A stretch of DNA of 64,000 bases from Escherichia phage ekra: the sequence record MN850644.1; one strand, given 5' to 3'. This document shows positions 57,847-59,563 of the stretch, piece after piece. How positions within the stretch are numbered: position 1 is the first letter of the stretch; the number at the start of each line of letters is the position of its first letter. The notes under the pieces were generated by a model. The model saw only the letters and a program-made list of their open reading frames with translations, ran no database searches and had not been told where the DNA came from. Made by a program: the position numbers and the translations under genes.

Positions 57847-58218
57847 ATGAAAGCTAAGAGTGCAAAAGACTTTTATTGCTTCCTACAATCCTATATCAAT
57901 TCCGTGCAAAATGGTGAAAGGTACAACCTTAATGATGTTATCCCAACACCTTTGACATGGAGACTCAGCAAATGGCCTGAAGAAGATATTACACCAACAA
58001 TCGAACAGCGTACCTACAAACCTGAAATCAATATTCCAGATTCTGAGAACCTATTATATCCAATGTTCCATATTGTTGGACTTGGAAGATTCCTTATGGA
58101 TATCCAGTATGTAATTGGTAAAGGCTATAAGGTTAAAGGTATTGTTGTTGGTGATGTATCTCCGCATCACAAAGGTTATTTTAGACTAAACGCACATTTA
58201 GAGGCTAAAAAGAAATGA
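57847..58218 (+). CDS. hypothetical protein, paralog of N-terminal domain of 58215..59099
   Basis: 123-aa ORF; shared pattern F..F..N.....RY......P.T....WPE.DI......YKP.....S..LLY.......FMD.QY.I with next gene. Confidence 0.45.
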   Translation: MKAKSAKDFYCFLQSYINSVQNGERYNLNDVIPTPLTWRLSKWPEEDITPTIEQRTYKPEINIPDSENLLYPMFHIVGLGRFLMDIQYVIGKGYKVKGIVVGDVSPHHKGYFRLNAHLEAKKK

Positions 58219-59099
58219 TTAAAGCAAAGACTTACCCAGACTTCAAAGAGTTTGTGAAGGGTTTCATTGCAAATGTAAAGGCTGGTAAGAGGTATGATTT
58301 TAGAACATATCAAGAGGCTATTTTACCACTTACCTATAGTTCATATTGGCCTGAAGCTGATATTGCAGAAGTTGAGAAGTTTGACTACAAACCAGACTAC
58401 AAAGTTCCATTTAGTGATGAATTGCTTTACAGTGTTGGTGCACAGATGAGAACTGCTGATTTCTTCATGGATTTGCAGTATGCAATCATCAATGGTAAAG
58501 ATGTTGACACAATTTACTGTGAATGGTTGGCAAGAGTTAAGCCGTTCTCAATGTTGAATGCTAAGTTGAAGGATGCTATTAAGCCACCAGCAATTACTCA
58601 GCAACCGACAGGTCAAACAGTCAATGAGGGTGGCACACTTACTCTAAGCATTCTAGCAACTAACGCCACTGGATATCAGTGGAAGAAGGATGGTGAGGAC
58701 ATCCCTAGTGCCAATTCTGCAACTTACACAAAACAGTCAGTAGCACCTTCTGATGCTGGTTCATACACTTGTGTTGTATCTGGAGAGGGTGGAACAAGTG
58801 TTACCTCAGATGCAGCAACAGTGACTGTGAATGCACTTCCTGTCATCACTCAACAGCCAACCAATCAAGAAATCAATGAAGGTGAGACCTTAACGTTGAA
58901 TGTTGTGGCAACAGGTGCAACAGGTTATCAGTGGAAGAAAGATGAGGAAGACATCCTCGATGCAACTACTGCAACCTACACCAAAGAAGGAGCAACCGCT
59001 GCTGATTCAGGAAGCTACACCTGTGTAGTTACTGGCGCAGGTGGCTCTGTAACATCTAATGCAGCAACAGTTACAGTTAATCCAGCAGGGGAGGCATAA
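58215..59099 (+). CDS. Ig-like repeat protein (N-terminal paralog domain + two tandem immunoglobulin-like domains)
   Basis: 294-aa ORF; two ~90-aa repeats ITQQPT.Q..NEG.TLTL...ATGYQWKKD.EDI.....TYTK......D.GSYTCVV.G.GG.SVTS.AATVTVN. Confidence 0.55.
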   Translation: MIKAKTYPDFKEFVKGFIANVKAGKRYDFRTYQEAILPLTYSSYWPEADIAEVEKFDYKPDYKVPFSDELLYSVGAQMRTADFFMDLQYAIINGKDVDTIYCEWLARVKPFSMLNAKLKDAIKPPAITQQPTGQTVNEGGTLTLSILATNATGYQWKKDGEDIPSANSATYTKQSVAPSDAGSYTCVVSGEGGTSVTSDAATVTVNALPVITQQPTNQEINEGETLTLNVVATGATGYQWKKDEEDILDATTATYTKEGATAADSGSYTCVVTGAGGSVTSNAATVTVNPAGEA

Positions 59100-59563
59100 T
59101 GCAACTCTCAAGAAAAGGTTTAGATGCTATTAAGTTCTTCGAAGGTCTGAAGTTAGAGGCTTACGAAGACTCTGCCGGAATCCCAACAATTGGGTATGGG
59201 ACAATCCGTATTGACGGAAAACCTGTTAAGATGGGTATGAAAATTACTGCTGAACAAGCTGAACAGTATCTTCTCGCAGATGTTGAAAAGTTCGTTGCAG
59301 CAGTGAACAAAGCCATCAAGGTTCCAACTTCTCAGAATGAGTTCGATGCACTTGTAAGTGAAACATACAACATCGGTATCACAGCTATGCAGGATTCTAC
59401 ATTTATCAAGCGCCACAATGTTGGTAATAAGGTAGGTTGTGCAGAAGCTATGCAGTGGTGGAACAAGGTTACAGTCAAAGGTCAGAAGGTCACTTCAAAC
59501 GGACTGAAAAACAGACGTAGAATGGAAGCTGACATTTATCTTGACAGTGTATATCCAAAGTAA
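59099..59563 (+). CDS. endolysin, T4-lysozyme-like (glycoside hydrolase family 24)
   Basis: 154-aa ORF; N-terminal FEGLKLEAYEDSAGIPTIGYG matches the catalytic Glu/Asp/Thr region of T4 lysozyme-type muramidases. Confidence 0.8.
   Translation: MQLSRKGLDAIKFFEGLKLEAYEDSAGIPTIGYGTIRIDGKPVKMGMKITAEQAEQYLLADVEKFVAAVNKAIKVPTSQNEFDALVSETYNIGITAMQDSTFIKRHNVGNKVGCAEAMQWWNKVTVKGQKVTSNGLKNRRRMEADIYLDSVYPK

Follow-up and report, generated by a model that had tools for sequence, protein, structure and literature searches.

Phages Bas63 and Sf14 carry the closest described counterparts of the Ig-repeat gene analysed here. Two independent cryo-EM reconstructions showed that their decoration protein, named Hex-Dec in Bas63 and gp20 in Sf14, is a monomer whose capsid-binding domain (CapBD), at the N-terminus, plugs pentamer-proximal hexamers at their centres in a T=9 head (PMC12609058, PMC11821841). 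The protein was found solely at these facet-edge hexamers, and its N-terminal 118 residues were identified as the binding domain (PMC12609058, PMC11821841). In Sf14 gp20, Arg79 and Arg107 contact the major capsid protein through salt bridges with its Asp221 (PMC11821841). The rest of the chain is a flexible string of Ig-like domains, with one to four domains per protein in the genus (PMC12609058).

The stretch of phage ekra DNA that was analysed, referred to here as the window, spans 64,000 nucleotides and belongs to the genus Felixounavirus (Felix O1-like myophages). The closest record was Escherichia phage vB_EcoM_ASO1A, with 97.2% DNA identity over the locus, and 251 related records were found. 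Three open reading frames on the plus strand, at 57847–58218 (123 aa), 58215–59099 (294 aa) and 59099–59563 (154 aa), were recovered as the first-pass annotation had placed them. We are highly confident that they represent a Hex-Dec decoration protein, an old tandem duplicate of its CapBD alone, and an endolysin that adjoins the pair without a functional tie. Given the fact that the Ig-repeat gene encodes the described and solved Hex-Dec, this part of the finding is ordinary; the protein, its structure, the variable Ig number and the mis-annotation had already been reported in 2025, in Commun Biol for Sf14 and in Sci Adv for Bas63. Only the conserved CapBD copy without an Ig arm, which lies upstream, had gone undescribed.

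Identity and predicted capsid placement of the Ig-repeat protein

The 294-aa protein has a calculated mass of 31,609 Da and consists of an N-terminal domain of ∼122 residues followed by two Ig repeats of 83–84 aa. A phmmer search against the PDB returned 9NCF_S, deposited as 'Immunoglobulin-like domain protein' (Bas63 Hex-Dec), with an E-value of 5.8e-248, and 9C2D_S/9C3A, deposited as 'Tail protein' (Sf14 gp20), with an E-value of 7.4e-165. Residues 1–290 aligned with residues 1–290 of 9NCF_S (E 8.6e-170 for that stretch). The CapBD, delimited by alignment to the solved Bas63 domain, comprises residues 1–122 (58215..58580, plus strand) and differs from the Bas63 CapBD by four substitutions. 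Both Arg79 and Arg107 were present, and the domain had a dN/dS of 0.036. The Felix O1 counterpart, gp36 (31,610 Da), was named a 'tail protein' and was detected by mass spectrometry in CsCl-purified virions with 44% coverage. The 294-aa protein is thus Hex-Dec of Bas63, gp20 of Sf14 and gp36 of Felix O1, a capsid decoration protein. The comparison of sequence, structural homology and literature revealed no evidence contradicting this identification.

The virion placement of the ekra protein follows from the near-identity of its binding domain to the Bas63 CapBD. By homology to the solved structures, each pentamer-proximal (quasi-3-fold) hexamer of a T=9 head would hold a single CapBD copy in its acidic centre, which would amount to one Hex-Dec per asymmetric unit and ∼60 per virion. 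Arg79 and Arg107 would be salt-bridged to Asp221 of the major capsid protein, and the two Ig_3/I-set-type domains would extend outward as a flexible acidic arm. T4 Hoc adheres to mucus and epithelium (PMC13370021; discussion in PMC12609058). By analogy with Hoc, the arm may adhere weakly to glycans, mucus or cell surfaces, may control particle aggregation, or both, and Hex-Dec may be dispensable for infection; for the Ounavirinae, we infer the adhesion role from this analogy.

Most GenBank records describe the protein as a tail component ('tail protein', 'HK97 major tail subunit'), as does phrog_3995 ('tail protein'), which it matched over its full length; weaker matches, to phrogs 158, 853 and 3575 ('major tail protein'), pointed in the same direction. 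However, the major-tail-protein matches cover the Ig region only (residues ∼96–208), and the 'major tail' label is explained by the I-set Ig domains that also decorate HK97 gp12 (PMC9022992). The Ig region further matched phrog_2973 and phrog_4069, both labelled 'Hoc-like head decoration'. The orthologue sits on the capsid in both cryo-EM reconstructions (PMC12609058, PMC11821841), and the Bas63 authors call the tail annotation wrong (PMC12609058). A location in the tail is therefore extremely improbable and was rejected, having already been refuted for the orthologues by the capsid density. Mis-annotation of Hex-Dec orthologues as 'tail protein' is present in most genome records, and correcting it to capsid decoration protein is the practical gain for this locus.

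The two repeats of ∼90 aa proposed from the first reading of the sequence were located at residues 124–206 (58584..58832, plus strand) and 207–290 (58833..59084, plus strand). Both begin with ITQQPT and carry all four quoted motifs (TGYQWKKD, TYTK, D.GSYTCVV and ATVTVN), and their identity is 67% at the protein level and 65% at the DNA level. Pfam matches to the whole protein were Ig_3 (3.5e-23), Ig_2 (4e-18) and I-set (PF07679; 3.4e-16), all above the gathering scores. The best stretch of Ig_3 covered residues 124–189, which makes the first domain Ig_3/I-set type; Ig_2 (209–288) and I-set (209–283) covered the second, which is Ig_2/I-set type. No Pfam match to Big_2 (PF02368) was obtained at E ≤ 1, and Big_7 reached merely E 0.066, so the earlier preference for I-set over Big_2 was borne out.

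The term 'eukaryote-style', also used in the first-pass annotation, did not hold. A recent capture of the repeats from an animal IgSF gene would fit the matching Pfam families (Ig_3, Ig_2, I-set, V-set), which are built largely from animal proteins, and the many animal adhesion molecules among the PDB matches. It would also fit the C-strand Trp (YQW) and the F-strand DxGxYxC motif (DAGSYTC and DSGSYTC) found in both repeats. Against this, the closest non-phage PDB match was bacterial, namely Aureispira GhpA (E 3.7e-41), which exceeded the best eukaryotic match, Robo2 (E 4.4e-19), by 22 orders of magnitude. Classical IgSF domains are defined by a cysteine pair in the B- and F-strands, which forms an intradomain disulfide. 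Each ekra repeat has one Cys, located in the F-strand, and the canonical disulfide is therefore absent. The domain type also occurs in T4 Hoc, T5 pb10 and HK97 gp12, and the authors of the Sf14 study report numerous homologues in bacteria (PMC11821841). On account of the bacterial best match and the single Cys per domain, capture from an animal was rejected as having hardly any chance of being correct.

Orthologues of 210, 293–294, 372–378 and 460 aa were observed, and the single Ig domain of phage EC6 is a chimera joined inside GYQWKK. These observations suggest that the number of Ig domains (one to four in the genus, two here) shifts by in-register unequal recombination between repeats.

Gene order and transcription of the locus

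The gene pair is preceded by a conserved neighbour of 196 aa (ORF196; 57209..57799, plus strand), which matched phrog_4034 over its full length (E 4e-116). Felixounavirus, Mooglevirus and a distant metagenomic relative all keep this gene in the same place; gene 38, the counterpart in Felix O1, reaches maximum transcription at 25 min (PMC3185647). Between ORF196 and the late gene pair lies a hairpin rich in G+C that ends in a T-rich tail (GGGGCTGATGCCCC TTTAACTATTTAT; 57809..57835, plus strand) and is identical to t38 of Felix O1, listed in Table 2 of PMC3185647 as a rho-independent terminator with a dG of -10.9. The simple terminator scan missed this hairpin because of its weak T-run. The Ig-less paralogue (57847..58218, plus strand) and Hex-Dec overlap by ATGA at 58215–58218, and Hex-Dec abuts the next gene at TAATG (59097–59101). 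That gene (59099..59563, plus strand) encodes the endolysin of 154 aa, a glycoside hydrolase family 24 enzyme of the T4-lysozyme type as first proposed (PF00959 Phage_lysozyme, E 4.9e-40; phrog_7, E 1.3e-56). An intrinsic terminator found by the scan (AGGCTCCTTCGGGAGCCT followed by a T-run; 59573..59600, plus strand) ends the gene block and corresponds to t35 of Felix O1 (PMC3185647). A sigma-70 promoter scan directly 5' of the gene pair gave no convincing candidate, with fewer matches than expected from shuffled sequence, and an Rfam search of the whole window returned tRNAs only.

The order ORF196, CapBD paralogue, Hex-Dec and GH24 endolysin was conserved and lies apart from the structural module. 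This synteny extends over Felixounavirus, Mooglevirus, Suspvirus and a distant metagenomic phage contig of 87 kb. The tight junction with the endolysin and the conservation of this order across genera could indicate that the pair is a lysis accessory, with an Ig-type binding module acting together with the adjoining enzyme. However, the orthologue is an abundant virion protein with a resolved capsid-binding domain, and no cell-wall-binding or membrane domain was found with Pfam or NCBIfam. Felix O1 transcribes genes 36 and 37 most strongly at 60 min, along with the morphogenesis genes, as against 25 min for the lysin gene 35 (PMC3185647). A lysis module was consequently rejected as barely credible, given the virion location of the orthologue and the mismatched expression timing in Felix O1. 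Of the three functions first suggested for the gene pair (surface adhesin, decoration protein, lysis-associated binding module), decoration is upheld for the Ig-repeat protein by the solved orthologues and the lysis-associated module is not supported; the adjacency of the endolysin reflects conserved gene order without shared function.

The Ig-less paralogue

The 123-aa product of the upstream gene has a mass of 14.3 kDa and a pI of 9.1, and corresponds to phrog_4463, Felix O1 gp37, Sf14 FDI99_gp021 and VpaE1 ORF40. Its relationship to the N-terminal region of Hex-Dec, noted at the outset, was substantiated by 38% identity over residues 2–100 (E 9e-17) and by matches to the solved N-terminal domains 9NCF_S (E 6e-12) and 9C2D_S (E 2e-11). 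Pfam assigned no family to it, NCBIfam yielded no informative match for either member of the pair, and the only PHROG match was phrog_4463, of 'unknown function'. A low-confidence AF2 model had 9ncf_S and 9c2d_S as its best Foldseek PDB matches (TM 0.55); it was built from a 16-sequence alignment with a mean pLDDT of 59.6, and residues 33–77 were mostly below 50, which makes it weak corroboration only. The Sf14 authors likewise found that AlphaFold fails to reproduce the CapBD seen in density (PMC11821841). The paralogue therefore belongs to the CapBD family by sequence and by fold, the fold being taken from this low-confidence model.

The contact residues have diverged. Arg79 is missing, an invariant Gly78 standing at that position, and the Arg107 position holds His or Gln, with Arg in P0039 and P0055. 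The K-P-[FY] motif common to all Ig-bearing CapBD members reads KGY or YGY. The paralogue has lost the Arg79 contact and turned basic.

The gene was found in 233 of 252 related phage records, across three genera and a distant metagenomic relative, and its transcription in Felix O1 (gene 37) is late, with a maximum at 60 min by RT-PCR (PMC3185647). A decaying duplication leftover without function could be argued from its loss in one evidently viable clade (∼19 of 252 records), where a shared deletion, seen in REP9, vB_CECAV_041 and EcF-vB, has also removed the start codon. The ratio of non-synonymous to synonymous change, ∼3.5 times that of the Hex-Dec domain, could be read in the same way. Against decay, the dN/dS was 0.12–0.13 among pairs with dS up to ∼1.2, indicating purifying selection, and the reading frame of 122–124 aa is intact in three genera and in a relative of only 45% identity. 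Conservation is strong in the C-terminal half, and a Shine-Dalgarno-like AAGGA precedes the start codon. A decaying remnant is thus very improbable; the paralogue is a real, selected gene that goes back to an old tandem duplication of the CapBD alone.

A role as a second structural decoration lacking the Ig arm, which would cap the 20 true-3-fold hexamers or compete for the 60 sites of Hex-Dec, is less improbable than decay and still unlikely. The shared fold family, the late expression alongside Hex-Dec and the basic pI of 9.1 as against an Asp-lined hexamer centre are consistent with it, and the differing contact residues could suit the other arrangement of the Asp221 ring of Sf14's true-3-fold hexamers. 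However, neither the Bas63 nor the Sf14 reconstruction showed density on the remaining (true 3-fold) hexamers (PMC12609058, PMC11821841). The paralogue was also absent from the virion proteins of three proteomic studies, namely the Felix O1 list of 17 proteins, Table 1 of Sf14, whose supplement omits non-structural detections, and, by implication of the main text, VpaE1. The viable clade that lost the gene is a further argument against a structural role.

Our best guess is that, while heads are being assembled, the paralogue still binds the centres of capsid hexamers or Hex-Dec itself, and that it may modulate decoration or serve as its placeholder, as a non-structural or low-copy factor rather than as a stable virion component. 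The missing density on the true 3-fold hexamers, the virion lists, the invariant Gly in place of the Arg79 contact and the viable clade weigh against any capsid-interacting paralogue as well. We tentatively consider it possible, if doubtful, that head decoration in the Ounavirinae involves the paralogue as a third, previously overlooked player. It might serve as a transient placeholder or regulator that chooses the hexamers for Hex-Dec, or as a low-copy cap, missed by icosahedral averaging and shotgun mass spectrometry, of the 20 true-3-fold hexamers. The gene is mentioned in neither structure paper (PMC12609058, PMC11821841). Decoration proteins of tailed phages serve as display platforms, and there is only a partial explanation for the restriction of Hex-Dec to some of the hexamers; an anchor-only duplicate directly upstream could bear on this selectivity or on how decoration density is controlled.

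Comparison with known decoration systems

Bas63 Hex-Dec (9NCF chain S) and Sf14 gp20 (9C2D/9C3A chain S) are full-length orthologues of the ekra protein. They share the N-terminal CapBD with Arg79 and Arg107, the Ig_3/I-set repeats, and the position of the decoration gene between the paralogue and the endolysin. The sole difference is the Ig count, which is two in ekra, four in Bas63 and three in Sf14.

T4 Hoc, which is dispensable, resembles this protein in being a monomer at hexamer centres with an Ig-like string and an acidic arm (PMC12609058, PMC11821841), and the Ig regions of Hoc and the ekra protein align with 28% identity (E 3e-5). The I-set family scored 59.5 bits for the ekra protein and 24.1 bits for Hoc, for which it is the best Pfam match, and a review assigns I-set domains to both T4 Hoc and HK97 gp12 (PMC9022992); I-set is thus not the departure from phage decoration proteins for which it was first taken. 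The first-pass annotation had also set its reading against the possibility of a known Hoc-like decoration protein, and this is what was found, because the protein is the published Hex-Dec/gp20 with solved structures and I-set domains occur in T4 Hoc too. In contrast, the CapBD is C-terminal in Hoc and N-terminal in the ekra protein, and a BLASTP comparison of the two showed no similarity beyond the Ig region, hence no Hoc-type C-terminal CapBD. The Bas63 CapBD was described as larger, topologically distinct and pseudo-C2-symmetric relative to that of Hoc (PMC12609058), and Hex-Dec differs further in occupying a hexamer subset only, in a single orientation (PMC12609058, PMC11821841). Given that no CapBD is shared, the ekra protein is a functional analogue of Hoc and not a member of its family.

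The single Ig domain of T5 pb10 (PDB 5LXK, 8ZVI) is detectably homologous to those of ekra (E ∼2e-12), whereas its capsid-binding domain had no similarity detected by phmmer against the PDB. A word-indexed protein search with the paralogue recovered close relatives only, at 68% identity or above, and distant CapBD members came from an exhaustive profile search of 1.84 billion representatives, which yielded only 12 clusters. Among them, the metagenomic proteins P0057–P0061 have a ∼120-aa N-terminal CapBD as in the ekra protein and differ in the display module, which is Big_2 in P0057 and P0058, Big-like in P0060, I-set in P0061 and a Lys-rich tail in P0059. As the display module is swapped among these relatives, the CapBD anchor combines with either class of Ig domain.

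Gene organization and identity of the Ig-like protein

The three plus-strand ORFs of the first-pass annotation were borne out in coordinates, length and orientation: a 123-aa ORF (57847-58218), a 294-aa ORF encoding an Ig-like protein (58215-59099) and, downstream of this pair, a 154-aa ORF (59099-59563) whose product was confirmed as a T4-lysozyme-type endolysin (PF00959, E = 4.9e-40). The genes are tightly packed; a Shine-Dalgarno-like AAGGA precedes the 123-aa ORF, the 3' end of which overlaps the start of the 294-aa ORF in an ATGA, and a TAATG junction leads from the latter into the endolysin. 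The terminator scan placed an intrinsic terminator 3' of the lysin gene (59573-59600, +), and a hairpin identical in sequence to the Felix O1 terminator t38 (57809-57835, +) parts the upstream neighbour ORF196 from the pair. On the minus strand, 23 tRNA genes are clustered at 49639-54555, a trait also found in Felix O1-like phages. A 471-aa protein containing DUF2828 and DUF7788 is encoded in divergent orientation (54721-56136, -); the Sf14 and REP9 records call it 'RNA-binding protein', and it adjoins a 123-aa DUF5681 protein (56218-56589, -).

A PDB sequence search with the 294-aa protein matched, near full length, chain S of 9NCF ('Immunoglobulin-like domain protein', 460 aa, E = 5.8e-248) and of 9C2D/9C3A ('Tail protein', 372 aa, E = 7.4e-165); these entries are the reconstructed capsids of phage Bas63 and phage Sf14, respectively. 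The orthologue, described as Hex-Dec in Bas63 and gp20 in Sf14, is present once in each asymmetric unit; the reconstructions resolve a capsid-binding domain (CapBD) made up of the N-terminal ∼118-122 residues, but not the Ig-like domains, which are flexible (PMC12609058, PMC11821841). Arg79 and Arg107, which in Sf14 gp20 are salt-bridged to the major capsid protein at Asp221 (PMC11821841), are both present in the window protein, and its first 122 residues differ from those of Bas63 at 4 positions. The calculated mass of 31,609 Da equals that of Felix O1 gp36, a 'tail protein' of 31,610 Da detected at 44% coverage in virions purified on CsCl (PMC3185647). According to the Bas63 paper, most Felixounavirus genomes wrongly annotate Hex-Dec as a tail protein (PMC12609058). 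The earlier reading of the Ig protein was correct, but the protein was already known as the published Hex-Dec/gp20 with solved orthologues; only the 123-aa paralogue goes beyond this.

A lysis-associated binding module, as also proposed earlier, found no support in expression timing: by RT-PCR in Felix O1, transcripts of Hex-Dec (gene 36) and the paralogue (gene 37) peaked at 60 min, like those of the morphogenesis genes 72, 73, 76 and 77, whereas lysin gene 35 and gene 38 were maximal at 25 min (PMC3185647). Although the adjacency is conserved, there was no sign of a role shared between the pair and the endolysin.

Ig repeats and conservation of the locus

The tandem Ig-like repeats span residues 124-206 and 207-290, each starting with ITQQPT, and share 67% protein and 65% DNA identity. 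Both contain the motifs noted previously (GYQWKKD, TYTK, D.GSYTCVV and ATVTVN). Pfam assigned Ig_3 (82 bits), Ig_2 (66 bits) and I-set (60 bits) to the protein with no match to Big_2, in agreement with the earlier preference for an I-set-like type. The 'eukaryote-style' description fits the Pfam label, but not the origin: among solved structures from outside phages, the bacterial Aureispira GhpA was closest (E = 3.7e-41), with animal IgSF proteins far behind (Robo2, 4.4e-19), and the classical B-F disulfide is absent because each repeat has a single cysteine. The I-set type is no anomaly here: it was also the top Pfam match of T4 Hoc, and a review records such domains both for T4 Hoc and for gp12, the major tail protein of HK97 (PMC9022992). 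The HK97 gp12 domains also explain the old label of Felix O1 gene 36, 'HK97 major tail subunit', and the matches to 'major tail protein' PHROGs, which are confined to the Ig region.

One to four Ig domains are encoded across the genus Felixounavirus (PMC12609058), and the same range was seen here in Hex-Dec lengths: 210 aa (EC6, vB_CECAV_041), 293-294 aa (the window phage, Felix O1, REP9), 372-378 aa (Sf14, vB_Si_35FD, Pr103Blw) and 460 aa (Bas63). The single Ig of EC6 (L007:2869-3501) is a clean in-frame chimera of the N-half of the first repeat and the C-half of the last, joined in GYQWKK, which points to in-register unequal recombination between repeats as the probable mechanism of copy-number change. 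A 209-aa variant (P0053) is frameshifted within the first Ig domain, after GYQWK; therefore, not every 'short' Hex-Dec sequence is a one-Ig form, some being truncated. In Shigella phage Z31 (L011:1198-1775), Hex-Dec has an in-frame stop just past the CapBD and the gene is annotated as two CDS, which reflects either a sequencing error or a natural truncation that removes the Ig arm.

The locus was 97.2% identical to that of Escherichia phage vB_EcoM_ASO1A and matched 251 phage records, nearly all from Felix O1-like myophages (subfamily Ounavirinae) of E. coli, Salmonella, Shigella and Citrobacter. The order ORF196, 123-aa ORF, Ig protein and endolysin was the same in Felix O1 and other Felixounavirus records, in Mooglevirus (Sf14, Moogle, KMM4) and in Suspvirus EP1. 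It was also kept in a distant Ounavirinae-like phage on an 87-kb metagenome contig (ERZ28599557 scaffold_93, L015:4001-5726), as ORF195, a 122-aa paralogue, a 298-aa Ig_3 Hex-Dec and a lysozyme. This Felix O1-like locus, encoding a near-identical 123-aa protein, also occurs in a record named 'Staphylococcus phage SA1'; for a phage of enterobacterial lineage, that host name looks mistaken.

The 123-aa paralogue

The paralogy proposed between the 123-aa ORF and the N-terminal domain of the 294-aa protein was upheld (38% identity to residues 2-100, E = 9e-17), and the paralogue belongs to the CapBD family. When its AF2 model, of low confidence (pLDDT 59.6), was compared with the PDB, the two top matches were 9ncf_S and 9c2d_S (TM 0.55). 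The paralogue was found in 233 of 252 related records and, at only 45% identity, in the distant metagenomic relative, so the duplication is old and predates the divergence of that phage. Purifying selection acts on the paralogue (dN/dS 0.12-0.13, versus 0.036 for the Hex-Dec CapBD), which is basic (pI 9.1, against 5.5 for the CapBD). The Arg79 position is an invariant Gly, the Arg107 position is His or Gln in most members, and the K-P-[FY] motif common to all Ig-bearing members is absent.

One clade, comprising REP9 (L004:2305-2498), vB_CECAV_041 and EcF-vB (L012, L013) and isolated in the USA, Spain and Egypt, has lost the gene, leaving a decayed remnant. The remnants share an identical internal deletion junction and a destroyed ATG start, which indicates a single ancestral loss, and the clade shows that the paralogue is dispensable for propagation. 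Z31 also appears from its sequence to lack it, the sole match being a Hex-Dec cross-match.

As far as the literature was surveyed, the paralogue is the only portion of the finding beyond the published description: 'paralog' is absent from the Bas63 paper (PMC12609058), and 'paralog' and 'gp21' from the Sf14 paper (PMC11821841). No density was reported on the remaining hexamers in Bas63 or Sf14 (PMC12609058, PMC11821841), and the protein is missing from the 17 virion proteins listed for Felix O1 (PMC3185647), from the Sf14 virion table (PMC11821841) and, by implication, from the VpaE1 virion proteins. This argues against a stable virion component, although the evidence consists of absences and a 14-kDa protein at 20 copies or fewer could be missed. 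Our best guess is that the paralogue would act as a transient or low-copy factor that, while the head matures, still engages either Hex-Dec or the hexamer centres; we consider the more interesting form of this reading unlikely.

Comparison with T4 Hoc

An exhaustive profile search with the anchor domain against 1.84 billion representative proteins retrieved only 12 clusters. Distant metagenomic anchor proteins carried Big_2 (P0057, P0058), Big-like (P0060) or I-set (P0061) domains or a Lys-rich tail (P0059), and since the same anchor is fused to each of these, anchor and display module are separable parts. Like T4 Hoc, Hex-Dec is a monomer at the hexamer centre bearing an Ig arm, and the Ig region of T4 Hoc aligns to the 294-aa protein (28% identity, E = 3e-5). 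Its anchor, described by the Bas63 authors as larger, topologically distinct and pseudo-C2-symmetric (PMC12609058), showed no similarity to the Hoc anchor in a sequence comparison of the two proteins and, unlike that of Hoc, is located at the opposite end of the protein. Hex-Dec is, therefore, not a member of the Hoc family.
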